In this document: in pieces, positions 35,862-60,924 of the stretch
Numbering within the stretch: position 1 is the first letter of the stretch
How the letters are laid out: each line of letters begins with the position of its first letter
DNA from: Candidatus Thermofontivivens primus
GTDB lineage: Bacteria; Sysuimicrobiota; Sysuimicrobiia; Sysuimicrobiales; Thermofontiviventaceae
Assembly: GCA_031458695.1 (NCBI GenBank)
Contig: JAVKJW010000007.1
Span: 28,219 to 92,218 of the forward strand
Direction of reading: 5' to 3'
Length of the DNA: 64,000 nucleotides
Position numbers and translations under genes: made by a program
Notes under the pieces: model-generated
Databases searched by the model: none
Seen by the model: only the letters and a program-made list of their open reading frames with translations
Told to the model about the DNA's origin: nothing

Positions 35862-35864
35862 GCG

Positions 35865-41072: not shown

Positions 41073-41080
41073 CGGTATAG

Positions 41081-41116: not shown

Positions 41117-41472
41117 CTGGCGCCTGTTCTCCAGGTTCGAGGAAGATCGCCTCGCCAGGACATCCCCTGACCACCGCCTCCTTCGACGCCAAGATTTTGT
41201 GCAAGGCGAATTGACTCTTGGAGTAGGGTCAGGCAGGGTATCCTCTCCCCGGGCAGGAGTTTGATGGTGTATAGTGAATCACCTCATAGAGGGGCTCCCT
41301 GCTGGTCTGGGCGGTCGTGTCTGTCCGAACCAGCAGCTCAGCTCGTCAGAGGAGGGAGAACTCCTGTTATTTTGCCGGCGGACGGAGGACACGATCTTGA
41401 ATTGGATCCCATTTGCTGTCCTATTTTTCACCAATATTGCCATAAGTCAGAAGGCAGGAAGGAGGGAGTGTG

Positions 41473-42690: not shown

Positions 42691-42727
42691 AAAGTTTTCA
42701 TCGCGGGAGGAATCAAAGGTTTGAACG

Positions 42728-43615: not shown

Positions 43616-43617
43616 GT

Positions 43618-44658: not shown

Positions 44659-45358
44659 ACGCTTCGGAGGCCTCCAAGCGCTCTCGGGCGTCTCTTTTAA
44701 GCTTGAAGAGGGAGAATTGGTAGGACTCATTGGTCCGAATGCTTCAGGTAAGACGACGCTCTTGAATGTGATCAACGGTTACCACACGCCTGACTCCGGG
44801 TGGATCCGATTGCGAGGGGAACGTATCAATGGACTGAGCCCCTTCCAAATTGCCAGGAAAGGTGTTGCCAGGATGTTTCAAATCACCCATATTTTCCCCC
44901 GCATGTCGGTCCTTGAGAACATGCTCACCGTGGGTTATGCGATCGGTCGCATCCCCGCCAAAAGTCTTGTACATCGTGCCCACGAGATTTTAGATCAGCT
45001 CTCTCTCCGGGATTGGATCTATGAACCGGCAGCAAGCCTCTCCGGAGGTCAACGGAAACTCCTGGAATTTGGAGCTTGTTTTATGGCAGCCCCTAGGTTG
45101 GCCTTATTGGATGAGCCCTTTGCGGGTGTCCATCCCGAGCTGAAGGCGGTCATGGAAAGGTTCATTCAATCGTACCATGCAGAGGGAGGGACGGTCTTCA
45201 TTGTGAGCCATGATATACCTGCCCTCGTTTCCATCTGCCCCCGCTTGATTGCCCTGCATGCAGGTGTCCTTCTCGCAGATGGACCTACAGAGCAAGTCAT
45301 CCGAGATGAAGCTGTGCTTGAATCCTACCTCGGGAGTTATACCCCCTCAGAGGTGTAA
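44621..45358 (+). CDS. Branched-chain amino acid ABC ATPase LivG-like
   Basis: Walker A GPNASGKTT, signature LSGGQRKLLEF, Walker B LLDEP. GTG start. Confidence 0.85.
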   Translation: MEVPLLWVQNISKRFGGLQALSGVSFKLEEGELVGLIGPNASGKTTLLNVINGYHTPDSGWIRLRGERINGLSPFQIARKGVARMFQITHIFPRMSVLENMLTVGYAIGRIPAKSLVHRAHEILDQLSLRDWIYEPAASLSGGQRKLLEFGACFMAAPRLALLDEPFAGVHPELKAVMERFIQSYHAEGGTVFIVSHDIPALVSICPRLIALHAGVLLADGPTEQVIRDEAVLESYLGSYTPSEV

Positions 45359-45362
45359 CGCC

Positions 45363-46085
45363 ATGGAGTACCTCCTGGAGGCGGAGCATATAACTGCAGG
45401 CTATATTGAGGACGTCGATGTATTGCAAGAAGTTTCTGTCCGTGTGATACAAGGTTCTATTACAGGAATGATTGGGCTCAATGGGGCAGGGAAGAGTACG
45501 TTCGTGAAAACGGTCTTCGGATTTCTTAAACCCAAAAAAGGGCGGATCCTTCTTGAAAAGGATGATATCACAGGAATAGAACCGCATATATTGATCCGAA
45601 AAGGCCTATGGTACCTCCCCCAGGAATCGAGTCTGTTTCCCCACCTTACCATTGAGGACAACCTCCTTATCCCAACCCGGGTGATAGGCCTGAGTTCGTA
45701 CGAGATCAGAGATCGATTGGAGCACGTCTACACGAGGTTCCCTGAGCTAAAGGCAAATCGAAAGAGGCATGCTGGAGATCTTAGCGGGGGGCAGCAAAAG
45801 ATACTGGAGTTCGCCAAGGTCCTTATGGTGAAACCTCGTTTGCTCTTTATCGATGAACCAACCGTTGGCATCTCCCCGAAGATCGCAGCAGAAATCTATA
45901 CCATGATCCAACAATTTTTAGGCGAGGGAACATCGGTATTTCTCATCGACCATAACCTCCGCAAACTTGTAGATTTGACGGATTATGTGTATGTGATGAG
46001 CCTAGGGCGGATCGTCGCCGAGGGGCCATCTTCCCAGTTTCAAGACAGTCTCAAAGAACAAGTCCAACGATGGTTAGGCCTCTGA
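45363..46085 (+). CDS. Branched-chain amino acid ABC ATPase LivF-like
   Basis: Walker A GLNGAGKST, signature LSGGQQKILEF, Walker B LFIDEP. Confidence 0.85.
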   Translation: MEYLLEAEHITAGYIEDVDVLQEVSVRVIQGSITGMIGLNGAGKSTFVKTVFGFLKPKKGRILLEKDDITGIEPHILIRKGLWYLPQESSLFPHLTIEDNLLIPTRVIGLSSYEIRDRLEHVYTRFPELKANRKRHAGDLSGGQQKILEFAKVLMVKPRLLFIDEPTVGISPKIAAEIYTMIQQFLGEGTSVFLIDHNLRKLVDLTDYVYVMSLGRIVAEGPSSQFQDSLKEQVQRWLGL

Positions 46086-46251: not shown

Positions 46252-46794
46252 TCAAGGGCTGGACCGAATCCGAACGAGATGCCAGATCACATACCCGTAG
46301 ATCGCCCAGATTGTGCCAAGGACCAAACCGAGGACGAGCGGCAAGACCGAATCAGGGTAAGGGCTGATGAACCCTGGCTGGGGACTTAGATGGCGAAGGA
46401 TGGCACGGCCGGGCCGGACGGCAGGCTCGAAAACATGGGCTTCCCTTAGCTTGATCGCAGCCTGGACCGTTCCTGTCTCCCCGGAGGCCTCGGCGACGAC
46501 CTCTTGGGGGCGCAGGGAGGATGGCAGAGAGATCCTCGCCCTGCCCTCTTCATCGGTCGAAGCCTCGGAAAGCTGCAGCCAGCCAAAGGTCATCCGGGCT
46601 TTGAAATTGATCATCACCTCCGGAATGGGATTCCCCAGATCGTCTACAACCTTCGCCACCACCTGGGTTGCCCCATCTGGAGCGGTCTGCACTTCCAGGA
46701 TCACCTTGGCAGGCTCCGCTGCAGATGCAGCGAGGACGTATCCCATCAACGCGACCAATACCCCAAAGGCTACGATGTTACGCCCCAGGCGCAT
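46252..46794 (-). CDS. Exported protein with C-terminal TM anchor, unknown function (last gene of the NrfCD-like operon)
   Basis: Signal peptide (MRLGRNIVAFGVLVALMGYVLAASAA), a beta-rich about 110-aa domain and a C-terminal hydrophobic helix (LPLVLGLVLGTIWAIYGYVIW). Overlaps the NrfD-like gene end by 17 nt. Confidence 0.4.
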   Translation of the reverse strand: MRLGRNIVAFGVLVALMGYVLAASAAEPAKVILEVQTAPDGATQVVAKVVDDLGNPIPEVMINFKARMTFGWLQLSEASTDEEGRARISLPSSLRPQEVVAEASGETGTVQAAIKLREAHVFEPAVRPGRAILRHLSPQPGFISPYPDSVLPLVLGLVLGTIWAIYGYVIWHLVRIRSSP

Positions 46795-48352
46795 CGGATA
46801 CCTCCTTTCGGATCACCGTATGAGGCTCCATGACCGCCTCCCGCGTCTCCCAGATGGAGACGATGGGGAAGAGCTTGCTGAAGAGGAGGTAGATCAACAC
46901 GAACCCCGCAAGCGCCGCTGCGGTGATGGACCACTCCACCCAGGTGGGCTTGTAAATCGCCCAGATCACCGGGACGTTCTGGATGGGGAGGAAGGGGTTC
47001 TCTAGCGTCGGTACAATGATCACAAAGCGCTTCATCCACGCCCCAATGTTGACGAGGAGGGACGCCACGACCGCAGCGGTGATGGGCCAGGTGTGGAAGA
47101 TCGGGAGCAGCCCCAAAAACGACCACCCACCCAGGGCGAAAACGACCCACAACGCTACAGTACGGATGGTATCCACGTTCTCAACCGCAGCGACCGGCGA
47201 TCTGGAGATCAACAGGAAGAAGGAGATCCCTGTCGCCGTGGCAAGCGCAGCCAGGATTGGCCGGGGCTGGAACAGCGGGAGATCTCCGAGCCGCCGGACC
47301 CAGGAGATGCGCGGCAGGGTCAGCAACAGCACGGGAAGGAGCACCCCAACGATTTGAGTGAACCAGAACAGTCGGGCGTATGGCCCGCTGAACACGGCAG
47401 TGAGGTACCCCCGCTCGTGTGTGGCCATCTTGTAGGCTGGGGTGAGGTATTCGGCGAAAGTGAAGTAGGCGTAGATCAGCCCGAGCGCGATCACGAGATA
47501 CCCCATGCGCCGAAAGTGGGACTCGGTGATGTAATCCTCCAGGTGGTACGCCCAGCGAAAGGCCGCCATCGCCGTCACCACCGCCGCTGCCCCGCTGAAC
47601 AGCGCCCCGGAGACGAAGTACGGACCGAAAATCGTGCTGTTCCACCCCGCGCGCAGGGTCATACCGAAGATCCAAGAGACCACAGTGTGTACCGAGACGG
47701 CGATGGGAATGATCAGGACCGCCATCACCGCCATGATCGTCTCCAGGCGATGACGCTGCTCTTCGGTCCCCTTCCACCCTAGCGCCAGGACGGTGTAGAG
47801 GCGTCTCCGCCAGGCCGGGCCTTGGGCGAACCGGTCCCGTAGCAAGGCGATGTCGGGGATCATGGGCACGTACAGGAAGAGCGTGCTGCCCGTCAAGTAC
47901 GTGGTGATGGAGAGGATGTCCCAAAGGATAGGAGACGGGAGGCGCCCGTGGAGCAGCACGTTGAGAATCCGATCTGGGCGGCCCATGTCCACGACGGGCA
48001 TCAGCGCACCCATGAGGAGCGAGGCGAACGTGATCGCCTCGGCCATGCGGGTAATCGGCCGCCGCCACTCGGCCCCTGTGATCCGGAGGATCGCCGACAT
48101 AAGGGCACCCACATGGCTCACCCCGATGAAGAAGACGAAGTTGGTGATATACACGCCCCACATAACATAGTCGCGAAGACCGGTCACACCCAGCCCGTAT
48201 CGGAGTTGTATGGAATAGGCGATGATGCCCCAGGCGATGACCGCGAGCAGGAAGCCCACCAAGCCATAGAAGCCTGGCCCGCTCTCCGTCAGGGAGGAGA
48301 GGAGCTGTACCTCGCGATCCGAGAACTGTTCGCGTAACTGAGGCGATCTCAT
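46778..48352 (-). CDS. NrfD/PsrC-family polytopic membrane subunit (quinone/quinol-interacting)
   Basis: 524 aa, about 10-12 TM, with NrfD-family features (the HGRLPSPILWDILSITTYL region). ATGA-coupled to the upstream Fe-S subunit gene. Confidence 0.75.
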   Translation of the reverse strand: MRSPQLREQFSDREVQLLSSLTESGPGFYGLVGFLLAVIAWGIIAYSIQLRYGLGVTGLRDYVMWGVYITNFVFFIGVSHVGALMSAILRITGAEWRRPITRMAEAITFASLLMGALMPVVDMGRPDRILNVLLHGRLPSPILWDILSITTYLTGSTLFLYVPMIPDIALLRDRFAQGPAWRRRLYTVLALGWKGTEEQRHRLETIMAVMAVLIIPIAVSVHTVVSWIFGMTLRAGWNSTIFGPYFVSGALFSGAAAVVTAMAAFRWAYHLEDYITESHFRRMGYLVIALGLIYAYFTFAEYLTPAYKMATHERGYLTAVFSGPYARLFWFTQIVGVLLPVLLLTLPRISWVRRLGDLPLFQPRPILAALATATGISFFLLISRSPVAAVENVDTIRTVALWVVFALGGWSFLGLLPIFHTWPITAAVVASLLVNIGAWMKRFVIIVPTLENPFLPIQNVPVIWAIYKPTWVEWSITAAALAGFVLIYLLFSKLFPIVSIWETREAVMEPHTVIRKEVSDAPGA

Positions 48353-49272
48353 GGGTGGTTCCCTCCTGTGGCTGCAGGTTCAGACTCGGCAGGCGGAGCG
48401 GGGTAAATGCGCTTTCTCGGTGGGAGGTAGTAGACGCGCGGCTCCGTGCCCAACTCCTCCATGAACCGGTAGCCAGCGTTGTTGCTGACCAGCTCAGAGA
48501 AACGCACCGTCTCTCCCTGGGAGTTGGTCACGGCGTCCTCAACCTGATCCCCAAAATAGATCGCCCCCATGGGGCAAGCCTGGACACAAGCGGGGAGCTT
48601 GCCCTCCTTGACGAGCCCCGGGCAGAAGATGCACTTCTCGGTAACCCCCTTGACGTGCGGGTAATTCCAATCGGTGGAGTACGGGCGGCTCAGCTCCTCA
48701 GGGGTATGCGGCGGCTCCACCCAGTTGAAGTACCGTGCCGAGTACGGGCAGGCAGCTATGCAAAAGCGGCAGCCGATGCAGCGGGAGGTATCCTGGATCA
48801 CGATCCCGTCCTCGCGCTTCCAGGTGGCGCTCACCGGGCAGACCTTGACGCACGGGGGATTGTCGCACTGCATGCACGGCCTGGGGAACCAGTAGGGTGC
48901 CGCCGCCGGGTTGTCCTGCATCTTGTAGACCTTGATCCATTCCTGCCCGGGCGGAACGAAGTGCATCGCAGTGCAGGCCTCGGTGCAAGCCCGGCATCCA
49001 TCGCACCGGCTTAGATCGATGACCATCACCCAGCGGCGCTGGGAGGTCTCCAAGGCAGGCTGGGCCGGCAGAGGAGCTGCGGAGGCTAGGGCGACGCCAT
49101 CCGGCCCATCGGGCAGGTGATCAAGATGGATAAGACGCCCTGGAGAGGAGGCGTCTGCCACCAGCGCAGGAACCCCCTTCCGGCGGATCAGGCGATTGAG
49201 GCCCGCGGGGAGGCTCGCTGTCCCGCCGAGCACGGCAATCCACTTGAGGAAAGCTCTCCGCGAGAGTCTCAT
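48349..49272 (-). CDS. Tat-exported 4x[4Fe-4S] ferredoxin-type subunit (NrfC/HybA/PsrB-like)
   Basis: Twin-arginine signal (MRLSRRAFLKWIAVLGG) and four Cys4 clusters (CDGCRACTEAC, CMQCDNPPCVKVCP, CIGCRFCIAACP, CIFCPG..CVQACP). Confidence 0.8.
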   Translation of the reverse strand: MRLSRRAFLKWIAVLGGTASLPAGLNRLIRRKGVPALVADASSPGRLIHLDHLPDGPDGVALASAAPLPAQPALETSQRRWVMVIDLSRCDGCRACTEACTAMHFVPPGQEWIKVYKMQDNPAAAPYWFPRPCMQCDNPPCVKVCPVSATWKREDGIVIQDTSRCIGCRFCIAACPYSARYFNWVEPPHTPEELSRPYSTDWNYPHVKGVTEKCIFCPGLVKEGKLPACVQACPMGAIYFGDQVEDAVTNSQGETVRFSELVSNNAGYRFMEELGTEPRVYYLPPRKRIYPAPPAESEPAATGGNHP

Positions 49273-49282
49273 CGTGGCCCCC

Positions 49283-49726
49283 TCAAGGAGTCCCCAGCAC
49301 AATGAGTTGACCCTTCTGGCCGGCGTGATCCGGGGCACATCCAACTTTGGTACACGCGAACATGTAAATCCCCGGCCTTCTTGCCACGAACCGCACCGTT
49401 ACGGTCTGGCCTGGCGGGATCTCCTGGATCGAGACGTTGGCCTCGGGGAGGACAAACCCATGAGCACCCTCGGGGTCGGCGTTGGTAATCTTAAGGATCA
49501 CTGTGTCGCCAGCGTTGGCCACAATGGTCCCAGGGACCCACTTGCGGAGCTGCACCGCCTCCTCTGCCCCGAGCGGAACGAGAACCACGTTGAACTCCCT
49601 TTCCTGGGGGACTACAGGCCGGGAGGCGGACAGCGGGAGGGTATACGCCTGCCAGACTAAGTACCCCACGGTCAGGCTTCCCAGTACCACGAAGAAAACG
49701 ATCAACAGCCACCCACGCCCATTCAT
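49283..49726 (-). CDS. Membrane-anchored cupredoxin-like protein, CuA-motif variant (C-x4-C-x3-H-x2-Q)
   Basis: N-terminal TM anchor (GWLLIVFFVVLGSLTVGYLV) and a cupredoxin fold, with upstream His (GAHGF) and FACTKVGCAPDHAGQ. GGAGGG lies 7 nt before the ATG at 49726. Confidence 0.55.
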   Translation of the reverse strand: MNGRGWLLIVFFVVLGSLTVGYLVWQAYTLPLSASRPVVPQEREFNVVLVPLGAEEAVQLRKWVPGTIVANAGDTVILKITNADPEGAHGFVLPEANVSIQEIPPGQTVTVRFVARRPGIYMFACTKVGCAPDHAGQKGQLIVLGTP

Positions 49727-49759
49727 CTGTGCACCCTCCAATGGATGTTCATCCCCTGT

Positions 49760-50302
49760 TCATGGGGTCATCGCCCTCGATTGTTCTTCCCGGATGGCCT
49801 GAAGGAGAAGGTTCACCAGAAGGCCGTCTCGAACGGCATACTCCCTGGCGATCCTCACCAACCGACGGTCCAACGAAGAAGTCGTCTCATCCTTGCGCTC
49901 AAGGAGGGATCGGAGGTATCCCAGGGTTTTGTGCTGTTCCCATAACCATGCCTCCACGCCCTCCATCTCCGCGGTCTTCCATGCCAGGGCTTCCTGGTGA
50001 CACAAGAAGGCCATCCTTTCCACTACCCGGATGAGATCGCGTTTATCGCGTTTATTGCGTTCATTGCGTTTGTTGCGTTCATTGGGTTCATCGGGTTGAT
50101 CGAGTTTGAGCTGGAGCTGCCGGAGATCTTCTGTGAGATCTGTCAACTCCAGCCACTCCAAAACGTCCCGTAACGCTTGAAATCCGTATTTTTTGAAGTG
50201 CTCTAAGACCATCTCCCGGGTAGGATCTCCAATCAGCTCGGCCAGAACCGTATACGCCTGTGCACGTCGAAATGCCACGGTTCGGGTGTATGGGACGCTC
50301 AT
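49760..50302 (-). CDS. Hypothetical all-helical protein with in-frame (NERNKR)n charged repeat; possibly a TorD-like redox-enzyme chaperone
   Basis: About 180 aa, no Cys/His metal motifs. ATGA-coupled to the upstream cupredoxin gene. Chaperone assignment is speculative. Confidence 0.3.
   Translation of the reverse strand: MSVPYTRTVAFRRAQAYTVLAELIGDPTREMVLEHFKKYGFQALRDVLEWLELTDLTEDLRQLQLKLDQPDEPNERNKRNERNKRDKRDLIRVVERMAFLCHQEALAWKTAEMEGVEAWLWEQHKTLGYLRSLLERKDETTSSLDRRLVRIAREYAVRDGLLVNLLLQAIREEQSRAMTP
50037..50095 (-). repeat. Tandem 18-nt/9-nt in-frame repeat (AATGAACGCAA(C/T)AAACGC x2 plus GATAAACGC) encoding NERNKR-NERNKR-DKR
   Basis: Directly visible as CGTTTATTGCGTTCATTGCGTTTGTTGCGTTCATT on the plus strand. 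Confidence 0.6.
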
Positions 50303-50757
50303 GGTCGGTCCACAGAACCCCGGGGAGCGACGACCAACCATCCCGCCATCTTGCGTGCCGAGGGGGTCGAACGATCATGATCGCAAGGGATTGGGCAATA
50401 AAAAGGGAAACGTCCGGCACGCGTGGCCAGGAACTCTGTGGTCCTTTCTTCTCCCTCTGGGACGATCAGCGTGATCCCATAGTCAGGGATAGTGAACCCG
50501 TGGGTTCCTTCGACTGCCTGAAGACGCAGGCGAACCCGCTGCCCCACGACCGCATGGATCACCTCAGGCCTCCACTTCCCATCTCCGGCGATCAAGGAAA
50601 TGCCAGAAGCAGGGGAGATTTCCCCCCACCCGAGGAACCTCGCCAAAACGACCAGCGCCGGAAGGCCGACGACCACGGCCAGGACAAGGATCCACGCCAC
50701 CGCTTCACTGCGCCGCCGGTCCCGCCAGGTCTCCATTAGACTGTAGAAAGCGGCCAT
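50299..50757 (-). CDS. Membrane-anchored cupredoxin-like protein, degenerate CuA-like motif (C-x3-C-x-H ... M)
   Basis: TM anchor (AVAWILVLAVVVGLPALVVLARF), upstream His (GTHGF) and FYCPIPCDHD...KMAG. RBS GGAGGAGGG. Confidence 0.5.
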   Translation of the reverse strand: MAAFYSLMETWRDRRRSEAVAWILVLAVVVGLPALVVLARFLGWGEISPASGISLIAGDGKWRPEVIHAVVGQRVRLRLQAVEGTHGFTIPDYGITLIVPEGEERTTEFLATRAGRFPFYCPIPCDHDRSTPSARKMAGWLVVAPRGSVDRP

Positions 50758-51048
50758 CCCTCCTCCCCCTCCAGCCTTATCCCTTCAGTCGCTCCGGCAT
50801 GGCGAATATGCCTCATCGTTTCTGGCTTGCTCTTTCCTCCACGATCGTGGCACATTCTCCCTAACGAGGGAATTCGTAAAAGGGGGGATTTTGCGGTACC
50901 GCGAGATGCGGAGAAGGGAGTTACCGGATCCCGACATGAAGACTACTGAGAGACACGGAGGGGATGTGGAGGGGTACGAAGGCGCGCTACGATACGATGT
51001 GGGGGGGCACGGCGGCGCCGTGCCCCCCCACAGGCGGGGACGCTGATG

Positions 51049-51708
51049 TTATGGCTTGATGAGGCCCTTGCGGATGGCGTACCGGACGAGGTCAGCAGAG
51101 GTGTGGAGGCCGAGCTTCTCCATAATGTTTTTGCGGTGGGTCTCCACGGTGCGCACGCTCAAATACAACCGCTGGGCGATCTCCTGGTTGGTCAACCCTT
51201 CGGCGATGAGCCGCAATACCTCCTGTTCACGTTCCGTTAGCCCATCCTCCTCTCCTGCAGGCACCCGCCGCCGGTATTCCTCGAGAAGGGCTTTGGCCAC
51301 CGAGGGATAGAGGTAGGATTCATCTTTATAGACCGAGCGGATCGCCTGCACCAGCTCGCTGGCCGCTGCTCGCTTCACCACGTATCCCGAGGCCCCAAAA
51401 CCCAGCATGGGAAGGACATATTCCTTGTGGTCGTGCATGGTCAGGGCTAAGATGCGCACCTCGGGATGCGCGGCCTTGATCCTCCGTGTTGCTTCCAGAC
51501 CGCCAATGCCGGGCATGGCGATATCCATGATCACGACATCCGGACGTACCTCCTCCACCAGGGCAAGGGCCTGTTCCCCGTCTTCCGCCTCCCCGACCAC
51601 TTCGATGTCCGGTTGCGCCTCCAGGATCATCCTGATCCCTTCTCGGAACAGCGCATGGTCGTCCACGATGAGGATACGGATTGCGCGCTCAGACTGCGAC
51701 GCGAGCAT
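51049..51708 (-). CDS. Response regulator, NarL/FixJ (LuxR-type HTH) family
   Basis: REC domain (ILIVDDHALFREG...DVVIMDIAMPG) plus a LuxR HTH (LTEREQEVLRLIAEGLTNQEIAQRLYLSVRTVETHRKNIMEKLG). Confidence 0.85.
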   Translation of the reverse strand: MLASQSERAIRILIVDDHALFREGIRMILEAQPDIEVVGEAEDGEQALALVEEVRPDVVIMDIAMPGIGGLEATRRIKAAHPEVRILALTMHDHKEYVLPMLGFGASGYVVKRAAASELVQAIRSVYKDESYLYPSVAKALLEEYRRRVPAGEEDGLTEREQEVLRLIAEGLTNQEIAQRLYLSVRTVETHRKNIMEKLGLHTSADLVRYAIRKGLIKP

Positions 51709-53200
51709 CGGTCTCGACCTCCGCAGGAACAGGAATCTCCACGTACAGCCTGGTCCCACCCCCCGGCCTGGAGTGGATGTTGAACGTGCCACCCAGGAGG
51801 GTTGCCCGTTCCCTGATCCCAACAAGGCCCATCCCCCTCCGGGAGGCCCCTGGCCCTAGAACCTCAGCCAGCTCAAACCCTCTTCCATTGTCCTCGACGA
51901 AGATCACCAGGAGGGTCCCATCGAAGTCCAGGAGCACCCGGACGTGGCTGGCCTGGGCATGTTTGATCACATTGGTGATGGCCTCCTGGACGATCCGAAA
52001 CGTCGCCGTCTCCACCGTGCTGGGGAGCCTGCGTTCTAGGCCGTGCGCATGCAAGTCGTAGGTGATGCCGAGGGGGACGAGGTGGCTCTCCAGATATCCG
52101 GATACCGCTGGCACGAGCCCTAGGTCGTCGAGGACCCTGGGGCGGAGGTCGAAGATGATCTTGTGGATCTCCTCGAGGGTTTGGGTGGCGATCTCCCTGA
52201 GCCTCCGGAGCCGCTCGGCCACCTGGACCTCCTTCTTGGGGAGGGTATTCTCCAGGAACTCCAGGTTGACCACCAAGGTGGCGATGGCCTGGCTGGCTTC
52301 ATCGTGCAGTTCCCGGGCGATGCGCCGGCGCTCCTCCTCCTGAGCGGAGATGACCTTCGCGAGCAGCTCCTGCCGTTCCCGGTGATGCAATTCCAGCTCG
52401 CGGTTGGCCCGGGCCAGATCCCTCGTTCGCTCCGCAACCCTCTGCTCCAGGGTAGCGTAGGAATCCTGCAGGCGTTCGGCCATGCGGTTAAATGCCTCTG
52501 CGAGGCGTCCAACTTCGTCATTGGTGGCCACCTGCAACCGGACACCCAGGTTTCCGGAACCAATCGCCTCGGCCCCCTGTTGTAATTGCGCAATCGGCCT
52601 GGTGATCGCGCGGGTGAGGAGCAGCGCAAAGATCAAGCCCAGCAAAGCTGCAGAAGCGGCGGAAAGGAGGAGTTCGCGCTTAGCCTGGGCTTTGCTCTTC
52701 CTGGCGAGCTCCAACACACCGGCGGCCCGCTCGGCATGGAGCTGGTGGAACTGGTCCATCTGGGAGAAGATGGCATGGGTAGCCAGGGTCGTCTCCTCGC
52801 TCCTCCTTCCCCCCAGGACCCCGAGGTCAGAGGGACGATCCGCCCGCCCCTGAACCGCCTTATTCCAGGAGGCGAGAGCCTCCAGAAGGTCTGTCTCCCT
52901 GGAGTCGAGGCCATCGCGTTGAAGGGAACGTGCCAGGGCTCCGCTCAGGCTGTGGATCTCCCCCATCACAGCGTCCTGGTGCTTTCTCGCAGGTCCCCCC
53001 GAGAGCGAGGGCTCAAGGGCCCGGCTCATGGCCAGTTGGAGTTCCAGGAACAAGTCGTGTTCCTCGAAGATCCTGGCGACCGCATCTACCTGTCTCGCGA
53101 CGGCCTCCAGGCTGCGGATGGAGATGACCGCCACTGAGACCAGCAACCCTACCAGGACCAGGAACGCCGCGATGAGCTTGGTGCCTAAGGAAAGCCTCAT
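51689..53200 (-). CDS. Sensor histidine kinase, NarX-like topology (TM, periplasmic helical sensor, TM, HAMP, HisKA_3, HATPase)
   Basis: Two TM segments flank an about 150-aa helical domain. HAMP (AEAIGSGNLGVRLQVATNDEVGRLAEAFNRMAERL), H-box (ELHDEASQAIATL) and the HATPase G-boxes are present. Confidence 0.85.
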   Translation of the reverse strand: MRLSLGTKLIAAFLVLVGLLVSVAVISIRSLEAVARQVDAVARIFEEHDLFLELQLAMSRALEPSLSGGPARKHQDAVMGEIHSLSGALARSLQRDGLDSRETDLLEALASWNKAVQGRADRPSDLGVLGGRRSEETTLATHAIFSQMDQFHQLHAERAAGVLELARKSKAQAKRELLLSAASAALLGLIFALLLTRAITRPIAQLQQGAEAIGSGNLGVRLQVATNDEVGRLAEAFNRMAERLQDSYATLEQRVAERTRDLARANRELELHHRERQELLAKVISAQEEERRRIARELHDEASQAIATLVVNLEFLENTLPKKEVQVAERLRRLREIATQTLEEIHKIIFDLRPRVLDDLGLVPAVSGYLESHLVPLGITYDLHAHGLERRLPSTVETATFRIVQEAITNVIKHAQASHVRVLLDFDGTLLVIFVEDNGRGFELAEVLGPGASRRGMGLVGIRERATLLGGTFNIHSRPGGGTRLYVEIPVPAEVETDARVAV

Positions 53201-53206
53201 CCCCTT

Positions 53207-53671
53207 CTACTTCACCACCAGGGTCCCCTTCATCCCTCGCTCGTAGTGGTCCGGCAGGAGGCAACCGATCTCAAAGGTCCCCTTCTTCCGGGGGGTGAAC
53301 TTCACCTCCGCCTTCTTCCCCGCTTTTACCTCCACTTCAAAAATCCCCATGCCCTCTACCTCGGCTTCAGAGGTTTCTACCTTCACTTCCAGATCCTTGA
53401 AGTAAGACTGCTCCTCTGCCCACTCGTGGAGCTCGTCCATGTCGATACCCGGCTTTGGAAGCGCGTACACCATGAACTCGTGGGTGACCTTCCCTTTGTT
53501 GACCAGGACGATCTCGGCAGGAACCCCTGCGGTCAATGTGACCTGCTTCGGGCGGAAGTAATACTCACCCATCTCCAGGGTCACTTTCTGGGCCTTCGGT
53601 GCAGCCGACCCTCCTTGCATCAGAGCAAGGGCGATCACCATAGCGATAGCTAGGATGGTTACTTTTCGCAT
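53207..53671 (-). CDS. Secreted type-1 (blue) copper cupredoxin, plastocyanin/auracyanin-like
   Basis: Signal peptide (MRKVTILAIAMVIALALMQGGSAA). T1 Cu ligands H (THEF), C-x4-H-x4-M (GCLLPDHYERGM). Confidence 0.7.
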   Translation of the reverse strand: MRKVTILAIAMVIALALMQGGSAAPKAQKVTLEMGEYYFRPKQVTLTAGVPAEIVLVNKGKVTHEFMVYALPKPGIDMDELHEWAEEQSYFKDLEVKVETSEAEVEGMGIFEVEVKAGKKAEVKFTPRKKGTFEIGCLLPDHYERGMKGTLVVK

Positions 53672-53732
53672 CTCCCTTCCCTCCTTTTTGTTTGGATTTC
53701 TTGCGCAGGCACCGCAGATGCTTTGTCCTCCC

Positions 53733-54140
53733 TTAGGGTTCCACGATCACCTCCCCTTGCATCTCCGTATGCTCTGGGCTGCATATCACTGTGCAATAGA
53801 AAGGAAAGGTCCCGGTCTTTTGAGGGACAAATTCGATGATCTGGTAGCTCCCGGGGGTGATCGGCCCGCTCTTTACCTTTAACCCCCGGATACGCAGCCC
53901 GTGGGTAACGTCGGCGCTTGTCACCTTCAACCGGACCTTCTCCCCCCTCCTCACCACGATCTCTGAGGGGAGCCATCCCCCTGCCTCATGGGTCCTAGCG
54001 ATGATGGTGATCTCTCCAGAGGCAGAAGCCACGGCCGGATAATAGATGAACTGATAGGCCAGGATGACCACAGGTATCCCCACTACCGTGAGGAGGACAA
54101 GAAGGAACGCAGTCCACTCAAGACGCCGCATCCTCATCAC
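53733..54140 (-). CDS. Membrane-anchored CuA-motif cupredoxin (C-x3-C-S-x2-H-x2-M)
   Basis: TM anchor (WTAFLLVLLTVVGIPVVILAY), upstream His (VTHGL) and YCTVICSPEHTEM, a canonical binuclear CuA ligand spacing as in COX II/NosZ. Confidence 0.65.
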   Translation of the reverse strand: MMRMRRLEWTAFLLVLLTVVGIPVVILAYQFIYYPAVASASGEITIIARTHEAGGWLPSEIVVRRGEKVRLKVTSADVTHGLRIRGLKVKSGPITPGSYQIIEFVPQKTGTFPFYCTVICSPEHTEMQGEVIVEP

Positions 54141-54141
54141 C

Positions 54142-55599
54142 TCACCCGAGATAGAGCCACAGGAAGAGCACCGTCACACCTGCCAGGTATGCAGAGAGGG
54201 GGACGAGCGCCCGCCTGGCCTTGGTGGATGGGGAGAAGTTTTGCCTGGCAATGGTATCCCCCACCTTGATGGAGAGAACAAGGCCCAGAAGGAGCGTGGG
54301 AACCTGGATGTAGGGCAACAGGTGCGGTGCATAAGGCGTCCAGGGATACCCTTTAGTCCCGAAGAGGTCCCATCCCCAGCCGAATGGATCAGAGAGGACC
54401 GAGAGCGCATAGGAGATGTTGGGGAGCACGAACGAGAAGCTGAAGGCGATCCATCCCGCGAGCCCTAGGGGAACCAGGGTGTAGGCGTAGTCCACGAACA
54501 GCTTCTTCAGGTCAGGGCGGCTTCCACCGGCGAAGACGCGGGAGAGCCAGGTAAATACAAGGTGAAGGGCTGGGGCCGCGACTAGGATGGATCCCAGGAA
54601 GATCGCAGCATACAGGAGAAGGCCAGAGAACGAGGTGAAGTTGGCCCAATCCTTGATCCTTCCCCAAGGCCCCAGCATGACGATGGAGTACATGATCGCC
54701 GCCCCTAACATGATGAAGGCCTTGTAGGCCTCATCCAGCTTGCGTCCCTTCTCCACTTGGAGGTCCTGAAAGAAGGGACGAGTGCGGATGGTGATGTTCT
54801 CGTAAGGACAGGCCTTGATGCACTCGGTGCACAAGAGACAATAGGTGTTCCGCTCCATGGGCGCTCCGGGGAACTCGAAGTTGGGGCAACCGTACCCTCC
54901 CACGCCCCCGACCCGAAGGCTTGCCTCGGTGCTCCCCCGGAAGCAGGCCTTGAACTGGCACTGCCGGCAGACCTCTGCATCCACCCGCCGCACCTCCACG
55001 GGAGCCGCCATGGAGTAAAGCCCCAGGAACCCTCCCACCGGGCAGAGGTAGCGGCAGAAGGTCCTTCGCTCAAACACCAGGTGGGTGACCGCGGCGATGA
55101 TTACGAGCCCCAGGAGAACGGCTCCAGTGACGATGGGACGGGTGGTGAGGACAGCGCTGGTGAGAGCGATGGATGCGAATCCGAAATTGGCTACCCACAG
55201 GTTCCGCAGCCCCTTGGGCCACTTTCGTGCCAGGCCAAAGGTTTTCGGCTTCCAGAGGATGAACGCCCGGCGCTGCATCCACTCCCCGACGGCGGGGATC
55301 GGACACATGGCACACCAGATCCTCGCCCCGAAGGGCACGAGGACCAGGATCAGCAGGGCCCACCAGACGATCCAGACGAAGATGATGGCGAAGTTCTTGG
55401 CCCCAATCGGGGTCCCCAAGAACCCAGCCATGATCACGATGGTGAAGACGAACAGGTTGGGGAGGATCAGGGCGAACTGCAGCCACCGCTGGCGAACGAG
55501 CCATCGCACAGGACGATATCCCAGGAGGTCTTTGCGCCAGGCAACCTCCTGGGGCGGACGCAGGATAGGACGCGCAATCGCAGTGCTACGCTGTGCCAT
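54142..55599 (-). CDS. NapH/MauN-type membrane polyferredoxin (2 x CxxCP plus 2 x [4Fe-4S] ferredoxin motifs) with extra C-terminal TM domain
   Basis: WCAMCP and FCRYLCP motifs on TM-flanking loops. Ferredoxin clusters CRQCQFKAC and CLLCTECIKACP. About 5 additional C-terminal TM helices. Confidence 0.65.
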   Translation of the reverse strand: MAQRSTAIARPILRPPQEVAWRKDLLGYRPVRWLVRQRWLQFALILPNLFVFTIVIMAGFLGTPIGAKNFAIIFVWIVWWALLILVLVPFGARIWCAMCPIPAVGEWMQRRAFILWKPKTFGLARKWPKGLRNLWVANFGFASIALTSAVLTTRPIVTGAVLLGLVIIAAVTHLVFERRTFCRYLCPVGGFLGLYSMAAPVEVRRVDAEVCRQCQFKACFRGSTEASLRVGGVGGYGCPNFEFPGAPMERNTYCLLCTECIKACPYENITIRTRPFFQDLQVEKGRKLDEAYKAFIMLGAAIMYSIVMLGPWGRIKDWANFTSFSGLLLYAAIFLGSILVAAPALHLVFTWLSRVFAGGSRPDLKKLFVDYAYTLVPLGLAGWIAFSFSFVLPNISYALSVLSDPFGWGWDLFGTKGYPWTPYAPHLLPYIQVPTLLLGLVLSIKVGDTIARQNFSPSTKARRALVPLSAYLAGVTVLFLWLYLG

Positions 55600-56146
55600 C
55601 GGTAGCCTCCTCGCTTCGATCTCGGATTTCCTCTCCACGGCGCCACAGCATCAAGACCGTCCCACCCGCCGCGAGCACGGTCAGGGCGAGCGCTCCCCAC
55701 AGGGTGTAGTTGGGGCCTACAACCACCTCGCCGATCATGAACGGGTGCAGGTTCCCGCAGATCACCGAGCAACGGTACCGGATCTTTCCAGGGCGATTGG
55801 CCACAAAGGAGACCACCGTCTCCTGCCCCGGGTAGACCTTCGCGTTGATGCCGTACCCATCGATGTAGAGACCGTGGACGACATCCTCGCTCGTGACCCG
55901 CAGCGTCACGCGGTCACCCAGCCTTACCCGGATGCGCGGGGGGCTGTAGGCAAACTGCCTGGCGGTGATGGTGAATTCTCGCTCCCGCCCGCCCGCCGGT
56001 CCGGCCGCTTGCGACACATTGCTGACCACAAGGATGTCGAGAAGCAACAGAAAGAAGACAAAGGAGAGAACCAGCGAGAGGCCCGTCAAGAACCTTGCCC
56101 TCCCACCGTGAGATCTTAACCCCATACGCCGTGTGTGTCGGAACAC
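55586..56146 (-). CDS. Membrane-anchored CuA-motif cupredoxin (C-x3-C-G-x2-H-x2-M, identical spacing to COX II)
   Basis: TM anchor (FLTGLSLVLSFVFFLLLLDILVV), upstream His (VVHGL) and RCSVICGNLHPFM. A second hydrophobic helix at the C-terminus. Confidence 0.65.
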   Translation of the reverse strand: MFRHTRRMGLRSHGGRARFLTGLSLVLSFVFFLLLLDILVVSNVSQAAGPAGGREREFTITARQFAYSPPRIRVRLGDRVTLRVTSEDVVHGLYIDGYGINAKVYPGQETVVSFVANRPGKIRYRCSVICGNLHPFMIGEVVVGPNYTLWGALALTVLAAGGTVLMLWRRGEEIRDRSEEATDGTA

Positions 56147-56329
56147 TTCCTCGCCTCCTCACGTTGTGTCGTGAGAGTCGGGCTCAGCCTTGCCCTACGC
56201 TCACGCTACCATGAGGTTCTGGAAGGGCACAACACACGATGGGGTAGGCGTTTTCACAAGTTTGCCCTCTTCCGTTGAGCGGGGGAATGTATAGGGGAAA
56301 ACCGCATCGGGAATCGGGTGGGGACTGTA

Positions 56330-56983
56330 TCAGGAATCAGGTGGACGCAGGAGGCCTTTGCGGGCGGCGTAGGCGACCGCCTCCGCCCTGTTGCGCAGGT
56401 GGAGCTTATCGAGGATGTTCTTCATATGGAACTTGACGGTGTTCTCGCTGATCCCAAGGGAGGTGGCGATCTCCCTGTTCGTTGCACCCCCGGCAACGAG
56501 CTGTAGCACTTCCTTCTCCCGCTCGGTCAGTTCCTCTTCCAGGACCTCTCGGGGCCGCTGACCCCCGTGCGTCCTGGCGAACTCCTCCAAGATCTTGCCG
56601 GCCAGCTCCCGGGAGATGACCGCTTCCCCCCGGGCGGCGCTCGTGAGGAGATCGAAGAACTCCTCGGCCTTCAGGTTCTTCAGGAGGTAACCCTGGGCTC
56701 CGCTTTTGATGGCGTCAAAAAGGTCGCGGTCGTCGTCGGAGACAGTAAGAATCACGATCTTCACCTGGGGGAATTCGGCCTTGATGAGGCGGGTTGCCTC
56801 CAGGCCGCTGCATCGAGGCATCCGGATGTCCATGAGAACGACATCCGGTTGGAGCTGGCGCGTCTTCTCCAGGGCCTCCAGGCCGTCGTTGGCCTCCCCG
56901 ACCACCTCCATCCCCCTCGCCTGGAGGAGGCTTTTGATCCCGTCCCTGAACAAGGGATGGTCGTCGGCAAGCAGGATCCTCAT
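56330..56983 (-). CDS. Response regulator, NarL/FixJ (LuxR-type HTH) family
   Basis: REC (ILLADDHPLFRDG...DVVLMDIRMP) plus LuxR HTH (LTEREKEVLQLVAGGATNREIATSLGISENTVKFHMKNILDKL). ATGA-coupled to the kinase. Confidence 0.85.
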   Translation of the reverse strand: MRILLADDHPLFRDGIKSLLQARGMEVVGEANDGLEALEKTRQLQPDVVLMDIRMPRCSGLEATRLIKAEFPQVKIVILTVSDDDRDLFDAIKSGAQGYLLKNLKAEEFFDLLTSAARGEAVISRELAGKILEEFARTHGGQRPREVLEEELTEREKEVLQLVAGGATNREIATSLGISENTVKFHMKNILDKLHLRNRAEAVAYAARKGLLRPPDS

Positions 56984-58356
56984 ACTTCGGCACCCTCCCT
57001 CCTTGCCGTCCTTACAGGGACAGAGACGATCACCTTGGTCCCCCGAAATGGAGCCGTTTCGAGACGGAACGTGCCACCCACAGCTTCGGCACGCTCCCGC
57101 ATGCTCTGGAGGCCAAACCTTGGCCAGGGGCTCGGAGGAAGGTGCTGGGGGTCAAAGCCTCTTCCGTTATCCTCGATGATGATCTGGACCTCCTCTGCTC
57201 CCTCGAGAAAGCGTACCTTGACGGCGGTGGCCTGGGCGTGCTTGCGGACGTTGGTTAGGGCCTCCTGCACAATGCGCAGGAGCTGCACCTCCACCTCCGG
57301 GGGAAACGGAAGAGACCCCGGCTCGCCCTCTATCTCCACGGCGATCCCATAAAGCTGTCTGTAGTGATAGAAGTACTCCTTGAGGACAGACATCAGGGTC
57401 CGATCCGGGCTCAGGGAGGTCCGCAACCCGAGGATTGCCTCCCGGATGTCGGCATACACCTCACGGGCCATGGACTCAAGCTGGGCGAGCTGGGATGAAG
57501 CTTCTTCTATCCGCCCCGCGTTGAGAAGCTCGCGGACCGCCTGGGCCTTGGTGTTCACGTACCCGAGAACCTGTGCCAGTCCATCGTGCATCTCCCTGGC
57601 GATGCGCTCACGTTCTTCCAGAATCGCCAGGCTCTGCACCTGGGCGTGGAGCCGGGCGTTCTCAATGGCGATCGCTGCCTGGTTGGCCAAGCTGCTCAGG
57701 ACTGTCTCCGCCTCCCGGTCAAAGCCATTCGGGCGGCGGCTCCCTGCCATGAGGATCCCTATCACCTTGGATCCAGTACACAGGGGGATGGCGAAAATCT
57801 CCTTCATCTCAGGAGCGGGAAACATTTTCCAAACGTCCGCATGGGGATCGGTGAACCTCAGAACCTGGCCGTCCCCCCCAAAGCAGGGGATCCATGAAGG
57901 TTCTATGGGAAGACGGACGTACGAAAGATTACGGGAATTGTCGACCAGAAGTCGCCAGGTGATCTCTTGGTGCTCATCAAGAAGCCCGAGAGCAGTGACG
58001 TCGCTGTTGAGAAGCCGGTGCGTGCTGACCACCACGGTCCGGATCACGTGATCCAGGTCCAGCTTGGCGGAAATCTCCGTGCCAATCTGGTAGAGGGCCT
58101 GGGTGAGCGCATTTCGAGCTGCCAGCTCCTTGTTGCGGGCAACGAGCTCTTCCTCCATGCGATCGATGATCCCAAAGACAAGGGAAGAAAATATGTGGGC
58201 CCCCACAAGCATGGCAAACAGGACCATCAGGCTAGAAGCCCAGACAGGAAGGTAGTGATCCACTGGAGAGCTGTGCCGGATATATTCAAAGATAGCAATG
58301 AACAGCGCCGGCCCCCAGGTTGTCAGGAGACGCAGGTTTCGCTTGTTCGTAAACAT
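56980..58356 (-). CDS. GAF-domain sensor histidine kinase (TM x2, GAF, HisKA_3, HATPase)
   Basis: N-terminal TM helices, a GAF-like region (the VTALGLLDE..AIPLCTGSKVIGILMAG region), H-box (REMHDGLAQVLG) and HATPase (EDNGRGF). The start is uncertain (58356 or 58395). Confidence 0.8.
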   Translation of the reverse strand: MFTNKRNLRLLTTWGPALFIAIFEYIRHSSPVDHYLPVWASSLMVLFAMLVGAHIFSSLVFGIIDRMEEELVARNKELAARNALTQALYQIGTEISAKLDLDHVIRTVVVSTHRLLNSDVTALGLLDEHQEITWRLLVDNSRNLSYVRLPIEPSWIPCFGGDGQVLRFTDPHADVWKMFPAPEMKEIFAIPLCTGSKVIGILMAGSRRPNGFDREAETVLSSLANQAAIAIENARLHAQVQSLAILEERERIAREMHDGLAQVLGYVNTKAQAVRELLNAGRIEEASSQLAQLESMAREVYADIREAILGLRTSLSPDRTLMSVLKEYFYHYRQLYGIAVEIEGEPGSLPFPPEVEVQLLRIVQEALTNVRKHAQATAVKVRFLEGAEEVQIIIEDNGRGFDPQHLPPSPWPRFGLQSMRERAEAVGGTFRLETAPFRGTKVIVSVPVRTARREGAEV

Positions 58357-58486
58357 ACACGGACAGAGGGTTCGGTTCTGCCTATATTGTGGCATGGATT
58401 CGCCCACCCGTCCATCCGCCCTTCGCCGGATGGGGCATCCGCTGGAGATCTGATGGTTTAACGAACCCCGGTATTTCAAGAGGGAC

Positions 58487-58517
58487 CCCCGGCAAAAGTC
58501 CAAGACTTTTGCCGGGG
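58487..58517. other. Near-perfect 13-bp stem hairpin (CCCGGCAAAAGTC-CAA-GACTTTTGCCGGG)
   Basis: Seen in sequence between the permease remnant and the kinase gene. Possible terminator or insulator. Confidence 0.35.
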
Positions 58518-58622
58518 TGCATAGGTCTCAGGGATCAGGCCTCGGTTGGCTACTCCCTGGGACCTGTGACCTTTCCCCTGGAACCCGTGTATGGCGTCTG
58601 CGGGCAAGGAGATCCCTGAGAC

Positions 58623-59101
58623 TCACGGGTTCCTTTTGGTGCTGTGCGGGTTTCCACCGGAAGATCCGCCGCTCCAGGCGTTCGAACGCCGCAAAGATCC
58701 CCAGCATGACCGCGACACGAGGACGATCAGGGCGATGGTCAGGGCAGCGTTGTAGGTGCTGTGGGCAAAGGAGAGCAGGTAACCCAACCCGCGGCTCGAC
58801 GCCACGAACTCACCCACGATGGCTCCGGTAAAAGCAAAGCCGGTAGCCCCCTTGAGACCTCCCAGTAGCCAGGCGGCCAAGGAGGGAATGGAAACCTCGC
58901 GGAGAAGATCAACCCTCCCTCCACCAAGTGCGCGAACCCGATCTATCAGCCGGGATCGATCTCCCGGATCCCGGAGTACACAGCAAAGAATATAAACCAC
59001 CGTCACCAGGAGGAAGCTGAGGGCGATCTTGGAAGCGATGCCGATCCCGAACCAGATTACGAACAGGGGTGCGAGGATGATCCTGGGCCCGGCGTTAAGT
59101 G
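58623..59101 (-). pseudogene. C-terminal remnant of an SsuC/TauC/NrtB-type ABC transporter permease, truncated by IS insertion
   Basis: The minus-strand translation (LNAGPRIILAPLFVIWFGIGIASKIALSFLLV...REVSIPSLAAWLLGGLKGATGFAFTGAIVGEF) is a BPD_transp_1 C-terminal half. The reading frame continues into the IS inverted repeat. No N-terminal half is present on either side. Confidence 0.6.
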
Positions 59102-60779: not shown

Positions 60780-60924
60780 TACTTTACCAAAACCTCCCTA
60801 CTGGTCCTCGACCCCTGAGGACTAAGCAGGGTCGAATTTTGTGCGCCAGCATGGGCGCTGGCTTGGAGGTGCAAGTCCTCTCTGGGGGTGGTCGCCCCTT
60901 CAGTAGCCTAAGGCAAGGGCGCCG

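Follow-up and report, generated by a model that had tools for sequence, protein, structure and literature searches.

Gene content and conservation of the cluster

The system described here is located on contig JAVKJW010000007.1 of Candidatus Thermofontivivens primus, a bacterium of the hot-spring type, within a 64-kb stretch of DNA that was analysed as a whole (here denoted the window). It consists of 14 open reading frames (ORFs), all on the minus strand, spanning positions 46252-58503 (12.25 kb), which encode five cupredoxins (denoted CupA, CupB, CupC, CupD and CupT1), an iron-sulfur (FeS) protein exported by twin-arginine translocation (Tat), an NrfD-family membrane subunit, an Ig-like membrane protein (denoted Big1), a membrane polyferredoxin, two two-component systems and an orphan ORF. 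An original prediction, made by reading the sequence, had placed the genes and their strand correctly, and every domain it named was recovered in Pfam and NCBIfam scans, including the Cupredoxin_1, COX2 and Copper-bind domains of the five cupredoxins. One gene had been missed, that of Big1 (46252-46794), a conserved part of the unit formed by the FeS and NrfD-like subunits (NrfCD).

Each of the two sensor kinases (GAF-HisKA_3 and HAMP-HisKA_3) precedes its own Response_reg-GerE regulator gene. The GAF-domain sensor histidine kinase of the NarL class (56980-58503, minus strand; Pfam GAF/GAF_2, HisKA_3, HATPase_c) is encoded by an ORF that shares 4 nt with the gene of its LuxR/NarL-type response regulator (56330-56983, minus strand; Response_reg 1.6e-30, GerE 6.7e-22); its real start probably lies ~40 codons 3' of the ORF start, and the annotation of a metagenome-assembled genome (MAG) gives a protein of 467 aa. 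The HAMP sensor histidine kinase (51689-53200, minus strand; HAMP 2e-18, HisKA_3, HATPase_c) has two membrane helices (hydrophobic segments 10-28 and 177-195) enclosing a ~150-aa periplasmic domain, and is followed by a second LuxR/NarL-type regulator (51049-51708, minus strand; Response_reg 8.5e-32, GerE 1.3e-21). The two NarL-type systems are therefore as predicted; the label 'NarX-like' given to one kinase holds for its domain architecture only, and no NarX sensor domain was found in it. A single 12-kb chain from quinol to cupredoxin, as originally proposed for the cluster, was rejected because the two modules have separate two-component systems and intergenic gaps, and because either is found alone elsewhere. 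The cluster instead divides into two separately regulated modules: module 1 (46252-50757) would be under the HAMP kinase and its regulator and may be a pared-down relative of alternative complex III (ACIII), and the GAF kinase and its regulator would control module 2 (53733-56146), in which a NosH/NapH-like polyferredoxin is encoded between two CuA cupredoxins.

In a motif search, CxxCH was absent from all ORFs of the cluster. Pfam scans found no molybdopterin enzyme, COX1 or NosZ among the other large ORFs of the window, which encode DNA repair, trehalose and polyamine synthesis, ABC transporters and transposases, and no match to nos_propeller, NosD or NosL anywhere in the window. These searches agree with the claim that the window lacks molybdo- and haem-catalytic genes, and that the membrane modules expected to interact with quinone are linked to copper proteins only; the same holds for the closest syntenic relative (L091). 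No curated NCBIfam equivalog is matched above its cut-off by either module. In a promoter and terminator scan the counts did not exceed those of shuffled sequence.

The NrfD-like protein is identical to one of the 'Armatimonadota' MAG GCA_030550015.1, and its closest named relatives belong to CSP1-3 and 'Ca. Geohabitans' (phylum Sysuimicrobiota). The relative L091, of ~79% nucleotide identity, keeps the gene order except for CupC and the orphan ORF, indicating that the arrangement is not due to chance; upstream it carries a gene for an alcohol dehydrogenase, and 3.7 kb downstream lie two operons of aa3-type oxidases. In the window, DDE transposase genes are located just past the GAF kinase gene, at 59109-60690 (plus strand) and 63090-63905 (minus strand). 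A contig of a sister MAG (L172) matches window positions 49349-60781 at 99% and is unrelated past 60781, a break that is either a rearrangement mediated by an insertion sequence (IS) or a mis-join of the MAG. Past the break, L172 (1-4779) encodes a MerR regulator and DsrE, as well as a molybdoenzyme of the sulfite oxidase family that has a small cupredoxin of its own. Compared with window positions 57089-57127 and 52178-52236, L172 also carries extra tandem copies (~39 bp and ~59 bp, respectively) in the two kinase genes, of which the ~59-bp copy breaks the frame of the HAMP kinase; the HAMP kinase of the window is intact.

The transposase genes directly past the GAF kinase, and the loss of synteny with the sister MAG at that side, could mean that the cluster is an orphaned remnant, decaying or non-functional, whose catalytic partner (e.g. 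nosZ) was lost by upstream IS insertions. An atypical CupC, a repeat-bearing orphan ORF and the disrupted HAMP kinase of the MAG copy would fit such decay. However, the 13 conserved genes are all intact ORFs with a strong third-position GC bias, and L091 keeps the gene order with neither an IS element nor a catalytic gene upstream. The arrangement therefore predates the IS insertion and has been maintained, and the absence of an adjacent catalytic gene is ancestral rather than caused by the IS elements at 59-64 kb. We regard a decaying remnant as very unlikely.

The FeS, ActC-like and Big1 unit with its cupredoxins

The FeS gene of module 1 (48349-49344, minus strand; Fer4_11 1.6e-22, TAT_signal) encodes an NrfC/ActB2/DsrO-like periplasmic subunit of 307-331 aa, with the Tat signal SRRAFLK (start at 49272) and 16 Cys residues in four 4-Cys groups. 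Its stop codon overlaps the start codon of the NrfD gene as ATGA in the DNA, so that the predicted Tat-exported 4x[4Fe-4S] protein coupled to an NrfD subunit is present. PDB matches of the FeS subunit were PsrB and the C-terminal domain of ActB, and the alignment to ActB covers only residues ~780-1020. The NrfD-like subunit (46778-48352, minus strand; 524 aa; PF03916 1.9e-28) is the only PF03916 protein of the cluster. Its only PDB matches are the ActC chains 6btm_C, 6lod_C, 6f0k_C and 8k9e_C (E 9.5e-62 to 3.5e-57), aligned over nearly the full length with an ~85-residue insertion in the NrfD-like subunit, and PsrC gave no match at E 1e-3 in the PDB sequence search. The original prediction could match the cluster to none of the described NrfD-type complexes, ACIII included; however, ActC is the only relative of known structure.

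The quinol pocket of ActC was mapped from nine positions of the Rhodothermus marinus protein (PMC5928083). Seven of the nine are identical or conservatively substituted in the NrfD-like subunit (W82, I86, F89, P136, L166, V250 and D169), Asp169 corresponding to D145, so that the hydrophobic pocket and Asp169 are retained. The charged triad His139/Asp169/Asp253 is not whole and reads Asp, Asp, Ile; this D/D/I pattern is invariant in our alignment of the family (A1) and present in 80 of 90 related proteins, the others having V or L at the last position.

ACIII is a quinol:auracyanin (cupredoxin) or quinol:cytochrome c oxidoreductase (PMC10873879, PMC5928083), and we compared module 1 with its ActABCDEF subunits in the structures 6F0K, 6BTM and 6LOD. 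The likeness goes beyond ActC: the Tat-exported periplasmic FeS subunit resembles the B2 domain of ActB, a gene for a small membrane partner, predicted to have two helices, adjoins that of the quinol subunit, and a cupredoxin, auracyanin, is a recognised electron acceptor of the ACIII of Chloroflexi. Nevertheless, the cluster lacks the pentahaem ActA and the monohaem ActE, a second NrfD-like subunit (ActF) and the molybdopterin-like B1 domain of the ~1000-aa ActB, and module 1 is therefore not ACIII proper. It further differs in having four 4-Cys groups in place of three [4Fe-4S] clusters and one [3Fe-4S] cluster, an Ig-like third subunit with no sequence similarity to ActD, and dedicated membrane-anchored cupredoxins encoded in the operon.

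Two other groups of complexes share parts with module 1. The best NCBIfam matches of the FeS and membrane subunits are DsrO (184.5 bits, cut-off 200) and DsrP (101.8 bits, cut-off 350), as in DsrMKJOP/QrcABCD, but a DsrOP identity was rejected as both scores are under the equivalog cut-offs. Moreover, DsrMKJ or QrcAB genes are absent, and the partners here are high-potential copper proteins rather than low-potential cytochromes c3 or DsrC chemistry. NrfCD and PsrBC of the complex iron-sulfur molybdoenzymes likewise combine a Tat-exported four-cluster ferredoxin with a cofactor-less NrfD anchor, whereas a catalytic subunit (a molybdoenzyme with bis-pyranopterin guanine dinucleotide, NrfA or a hydrogenase) is absent from both the window and L091. 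An anchor of the Psr/Nrf/Ttr/Dms type was rejected, given that PsrC is not matched and no catalytic subunit is present.

Big1 (46252-46794, minus strand; Big_1 2.4e-7, under the gathering score) has two hydrophobic segments, a signal/anchor helix and a C-terminal membrane helix, with an Ig-like (Big_1/transthyretin-like) periplasmic domain. It showed no sequence similarity to any ACIII chain, leaving an identification as ActD without sequence support. A Big1 homologue is encoded 3' of the NrfD gene in most related loci, and Big1 is a predicted conserved third subunit of the NrfCD unit.

Directly 5' of the FeS gene is the gene of CupD (49283-49741, minus strand; Cupredoxin_1 1.1e-7), a membrane-anchored cupredoxin with a CuA-like variant site, C-x4-C-x3-H-x2-Q. 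Unlike in CuA proteins, its Cys loop is one residue longer and a Gln replaces the axial Met, at which it aligns in the Thermus CuA domain. The variant motif is kept in all NrfC-adjacent orthologues (L002, L009-L012, L016, L019, L090 and L091), and CupD is probably the first electron acceptor of module 1. CupC (50299-50757, minus strand; Cupredoxin_1 1.6e-6), also membrane-anchored, has an atypical Cys pair in the motif YCPIPCDH...M (C-x3-C-x-H...M), which departs from the canonical CuA set, and the nature of its metal site is uncertain; its gene is missing from L091. Thus, of the four membrane-anchored cupredoxins to which CuA motifs had been ascribed, CupA and CupB of module 2 are canonical, while CupD is a variant and CupC atypical. 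The soluble type-1 cupredoxin that had been predicted is CupT1 (53207-53671, minus strand; Cupredoxin_1 2.6e-14, Copper-bind 5.4e-6), secreted by means of a signal peptide and bearing the type-1 (blue) ligands THEF...C-x4-H-x4-M. It scored 27.2 bits against PF00127 (threshold 21.2), and its PDB matches (the 4hcf cupredoxin, AcoP, auracyanin B) were weak. The CupT1 gene occupies the slot held by nosZ in related nos operons, and CupT1 is probably a mobile electron carrier.

The orphan ORF (49760-50341, minus strand; 193 aa) had no Pfam or NCBIfam match and no homologue in any locus examined. It carries a 9-bp repeat in eight tandem copies at 50036-50107, encoding NERNKRNERNKRDKRD, and appears as two ORFs in the MAG annotation; it is doubtful as a gene and lies outside the conserved part of the system. 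A Tat chaperone of the TorD/NarJ type was rejected for it, as it matches no such family and is not homologous even to the gene at the same position in L090.

A genome-wide scan gave 587 relatives, of which the best 80 loci were examined. Among these the FeS-NrfD-Big1 trio was found in Armatimonadota, Chloroflexota, Bacillota, Bacteroidota, Planctomycetota and Omnitrophota, and in the archaeal Thermoplasmatota, Bathyarchaeia and Thaumarchaeota. The partner of the trio is a cupredoxin in ~22 loci and a monohaem cytochrome c in ~20, suggesting that the carriers are interchangeable. Gene fusions link the same parts: NrfD-Big1 (P0031, P0055), NrfD-cytochrome c (P0091) and Big1-cytochrome c (L003, L015, L018). 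In a Bathyarchaeia MAG (L075, 11394-12863), the gene after NrfD encodes a 489-aa protein that joins an N-terminal CupC-like domain, in which a similar motif (YCVIPCD) recurs, an Ig-like domain, a membrane helix and a CupD-like domain with the site C-x4-C-x3-H-x2-M. A Pfam census of 112 neighbouring ORFs in the 22 cupredoxin-type loci detected no recurrent catalytic subunit, the pattern expected of a complex-III-like quinol:carrier oxidoreductase; the most recurrent neighbours were P-type ATPases and TlpA-like redoxins (3/22 each).

Some of the related loci carry additional genes. In Planctomycetota, Bacteroidota and Omnitrophota (L026, L050 and L072) genes for a monohaem cytochrome c and an outer-membrane protein like Porin_O_P come after those of the trio, which suggests that in these diderms the trio is tied to a substrate or partner crossing the outer membrane. 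Two distant relatives have a gene for a 57-58-aa YHS-domain protein after that of Big1 (L090, 12234-12407; L005, 13773-13949), and in L005 genes for a CopA-type ATPase and an HMA protein are present upstream.

A polyferredoxin between two CuA cupredoxins

Among the cupredoxins of the cluster, only CupA (55586-56146, minus strand; COX2 4e-10) and CupB (53733-54140, minus strand; COX2 3.8e-7) carry the canonical CuA set, H-x34/35-C-x3-C-x3-H-x2-M, in full, as do haem-copper oxidase subunit II and the NosZ C-terminus. CupA has N- and C-terminal membrane helices (hydrophobic segments 23-41 and 149-167), and CupB is also membrane-anchored. Both exceed the gathering score of PF00116 (40.1 and 30.5 bits, respectively) and align best to the CuA domain of Thermus ba3 oxidase and to the NosZ C-terminus: the ligands H, C, C, H and M of the Thermus domain (6ptt, 4e-19) are all matched in CupA, and CupB, with the motif C-TVI-C-SPE-H-TE-M, also matches the C-terminal domain of NosZ (8.6e-17). 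A binuclear mixed-valence copper centre is predicted in both. In contrast to the known CuA proteins, CupA and CupB are free-standing, single-domain and membrane-anchored, with no subunit I or NosZ propeller.

The polyferredoxin gene (54142-55638, minus strand; Fer4_5 3.5e-8), whose true start is probably near 55578, encodes ~9 membrane helices with CxxCP and CxxxCP motifs. The Cys residues (C109xxC112P, C195xxxC199P, C224...C232...C251P and C267xxCxxCxxxC277P) are invariant in the alignment of its homologues (A2), and the two [4Fe-4S] motifs are on R/K-rich loops predicted to be cytoplasmic. Two Cys-x(2-3)-Cys-Pro motifs and two cytoplasmic [4Fe-4S] motifs are likewise features of the NapH-type polyferredoxins of NosGH-NosC1C2 (clade II), NapGH and NosR, and the NapH/MauN-like CxxCP polyferredoxin of the original prediction is borne out in this sense. 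Unlike NapH and NosH, it has a C-terminal extension of five helices, which bears a conserved Trp-rich outer loop (SDPFGWGWDLFGT), and its scores are far under the NapH cut-offs (TIGR02163 NapH/MauN, 42.8 bits vs 213; NF007013, 35.4 vs 234). The module 2 operon also encodes no periplasmic FeS partner of the NosG/NapG kind. An AlphaFold2 model of the polyferredoxin (predicted template-modelling score 0.75) had no fold match in the PDB, the best E being 0.79.

At least 2299 homologues of the polyferredoxin were found, and gene contexts were taken from 78 loci. A CuA cupredoxin is fused or adjacent to the polyferredoxin in 72 of these and in all 30 with full context, and in many homologues CupA is fused at the N-terminus. 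CupB homologues often have a C-terminal monohaem cytochrome c domain, which the CupB described here lacks. Counts of nosZ were made at a strict threshold, since cross-matches between cupredoxin domains inflate a looser count. The cupredoxin-polyferredoxin-cupredoxin trio lies directly 5' of nosZ-nosB-like-nosDFY(L) in L088 (Limnochordaceae), L092 and L093, and nosZ likewise adjoins it in L124 and L147. The two close homologues then left on long contigs, P0126 (65%) and P0130 (62%), were looked up as a prospective test, and both showed the order cupredoxin-polyferredoxin-cupredoxin-nosZ. Considering the closest homologues of the trio outside the lineage (62-66% identity), all five with context, on independent contigs, are directly 5' of nosZ-nosDFY(L). 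The trio is in a nos cluster in L088, L092, L093, L173 and L174 and not in the window, which holds no nos gene. The original prediction had held that close full-length homology to a Nos or ACIII operon would place the cluster in a known complex, which is partly the case: nosZ does adjoin the trio in its homologues, and no nos gene does so here. As the trio forms the first part of nosZ operons in the closest relatives, module 2 most likely supplies nitrous oxide (N2O) reductase.

Clade II nos clusters have been described with an FeS protein and cytochromes ahead of nosZ, and on gene order module 2 appears to be a copper version of this arrangement. As in NosGH-NosC1C2, small periplasmic one-electron carriers are encoded alongside; in module 2 this part is taken by a pair of CuA cupredoxins, which often occur as fusions with the polyferredoxin, and not by c-type cytochromes. 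A clade III (lactonase-type) NosZ was considered and rejected, the weak NCBIfam domain matches covering only the shared cupredoxin domain.

On nine metagenome contigs with module 2 (L115, L121, L133, L134, L137, L139, L140, L158 and L162), a PCYCGC-motif lipoprotein (PF13798) is encoded before CupA, and there are also genes for one or two Ig proteins like DUF1573 that end in ...EGC. Accessory genes of this kind accompany module 2 in Chloroflexi. Their products are possibly metal chaperones; a search of the window for CYCGC gave no match.

Cupric reductase activity is known from CcoG, which belongs to the same broad class of polyferredoxins. The cluster could accordingly serve copper homeostasis, handling copper ions instead of respiratory electrons, with a CcoG-like polyferredoxin or with NrfCD driving periplasmic Cu(I)/Cu(II) chemistry, and with the cupredoxins as CopI-like resistance proteins. 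CupT1 indeed partially matches the CopI equivalog (56.5 bits), but the match covers N-terminal strands only and is far under the cut-off of 280, and TIGR02745 (CcoG) gave no match to the polyferredoxin, whereas the NapH model did. Copper-handling genes occur near NrfCD-Big1 in several loci (CopA, CopZ and YHS in L005; CueP in L002; YHS and Zip in L090; multicopper oxidases in L003), and P-type ATPases and TlpA-like redoxins head the neighbour census given above; such copper-trafficking neighbours are equally explained by the loading of five copper proteins. CupA and CupB have complete CuA electron-transfer sites, and the regulators are NarL-type with GAF/HAMP sensors, not CopRS, CusRS or CueR. 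Furthermore, about half of the related NrfCD-Big1 loci have cytochrome c in place of the cupredoxins, which favours a role of the latter as electron carriers over one as copper sinks. A role in copper homeostasis is thus rather improbable.

Direction and destination of electron flow

From the domains, ligand motifs, homology, synteny and gene fusions that were observed, we infer the electron direction, the subunit contacts, the terminal acceptor and the donor of the polyferredoxin (quinol or cytoplasmic). Our preferred reading, to which we give a probability of roughly 55%, is that the cluster encodes two separately regulated haem-free modules that would pass electrons from menaquinol to copper carriers at the external side of the membrane and on to copper terminal enzymes encoded elsewhere (NosZ, NirK or aa3 oxidase). 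In module 1, the ActC-like subunit would oxidise menaquinol in its pocket on the outer side. The four [4Fe-4S] clusters of the Tat-exported subunit would relay the electrons to CupD, perhaps to CupC as well, and in the end to the soluble CupT1, with Big1 as a structural third subunit that docks the carrier. In parallel, the polyferredoxin of module 2 would reduce CupA and CupB, most likely delivering electrons to N2O reductase, here maybe through CupT1. For module 1, this reading is supported by ActC as the sole solved relative, by the kept hydrophobic pocket and Asp169 and by the nearby aa3 operons of L091; routes from quinol to copper carriers have precedents in ACIII with auracyanin and in NosGH. 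Members of Sysuimicrobiota (CSP1-3) carry nirK and nosZ (PMC11604079).

Several observations weigh against this reading. The 64-kb window contains no terminal enzyme, and copper-handling genes are near some homologues. In the pocket of the ActC-like subunit the polar residues are changed, His139 to Asp (D122) and Asp253 to Ile (I228), and the NrfD clade of the D/D/I type also occurs beside molybdoenzyme-sized subunits and multihaem cytochromes, indicating that the NrfD-like subunit is not copper-specific. As for the polyferredoxin, its FeS clusters are predicted to lie on the cytoplasmic side, and it lacks haem ligands that could carry electrons through the membrane. In more distant loci (L087, L089, L097 and L117) the trio adjoins genes for GltD-like NAD(P)H flavoproteins (Fer4_20 and Pyr_redox_2, ~600 aa), which directly follow that of the polyferredoxin. 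These neighbours point to a donor in the cytoplasm in place of quinol, and hint at NAD(P)H as an electron source for the cytoplasmic FeS clusters.

The potentials of cupredoxins and CuA centres are ~ +200 to +350 mV and that of menaquinone is ~ -75 mV, which makes quinol-to-copper the downhill direction. Flow in the opposite direction occurs in Acidithiobacillus, in which bc1 runs uphill with rusticyanin. By analogy, periplasmic oxidations (e.g. of sulfite or sulfide) could reduce the cupredoxins in lithotrophic growth, and the ActC-like module could use the proton-motive force to reduce menaquinone, the raised electrons serving NAD(P)H formation and CO2 fixation. Such flow would need a driving force of ~300-400 mV, for which the NrfCD-Big1 family offers no evidence, although ACIII-type subunits have been proposed as proton translocators (PMC5928083). 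CSP1-3/Sysuimicrobiota have been described as facultative chemoautotrophs on H2 or sulfide (PMC11604079), and the sulfite-oxidase-family molybdoenzyme, its cupredoxin and DsrE are encoded a few kb past the IS element in the near-identical MAG contig; in the window, however, sulfite-oxidase genes are not adjacent and synteny stops at 60781. Forward flow agrees with both the link of module 2 to nos genes and the presence of aa3 oxidases nearby, and we consider reverse flow unlikely.

Elsewhere in the window, the GC content of positions 28000-46000 falls to 0.50-0.57, compared with ~0.60-0.63 on both flanks. This block beside the cluster encodes ABC transporters for peptides and branched-chain amino acids, a protein of the beta-lactamase family and an M55 peptidase, and may have been acquired horizontally. 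We also noted a hemerythrin-DUF2249 protein (8196-8915, minus strand), a fused trehalose-6-phosphate synthase/phosphatase (10881-13367, minus strand) and a branched-chain polyamine synthase (BpsA; 13201-14334, minus strand), the last of which fits a thermophilic host.

We found no published description of either module in the literature, and a 2021 review of the NrfD family makes no mention of copper partners. The parts are of known kinds, and it is the haem-free make-up for which no earlier description was found. At present metabolic annotation pipelines label these genes 'NrfD/PsrC family molybdoenzyme membrane anchor', '4Fe-4S binding protein' and 'cupredoxin domain-containing protein'. More tentatively than the preferred reading, and with doubt prevailing, we suggest that the modules are an unrecognised pair of widespread respiratory devices: a haem-free three-subunit 'mini-ACIII' that would replace bc1/ACIII in many phyla of bacteria and archaea, and a NosH-like/CuA entry point to N2O reductase that would operate without NosR or NosGH-C1C2. 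The former would be a quinol:cupredoxin or quinol:cytochrome c oxidoreductase made of an FeS protein, an ActC-like subunit and an Ig-like anchor. Together with copper-only terminal enzymes, the two devices would form an all-copper, all-iron-sulfur path from the quinone pool to N2O.

If the preferred reading is true, module 1 would be a minimal, haem-free addition to the short list of complexes linking the quinone pool to periplasmic carriers (bc1/b6f and ACIII), and CuA proteins would carry electrons as free-standing units, and not only within oxidase subunit II and NosZ. The two gene sets can be readily recognised and could enter such pipelines. The interest lies mainly in the wide spread of both modules and in the bearing of module 2 on the electron supply to N2O reductase, a climate-relevant enzyme, which it would explain in clade II organisms that have neither NosR nor NosGH-cytochrome modules.

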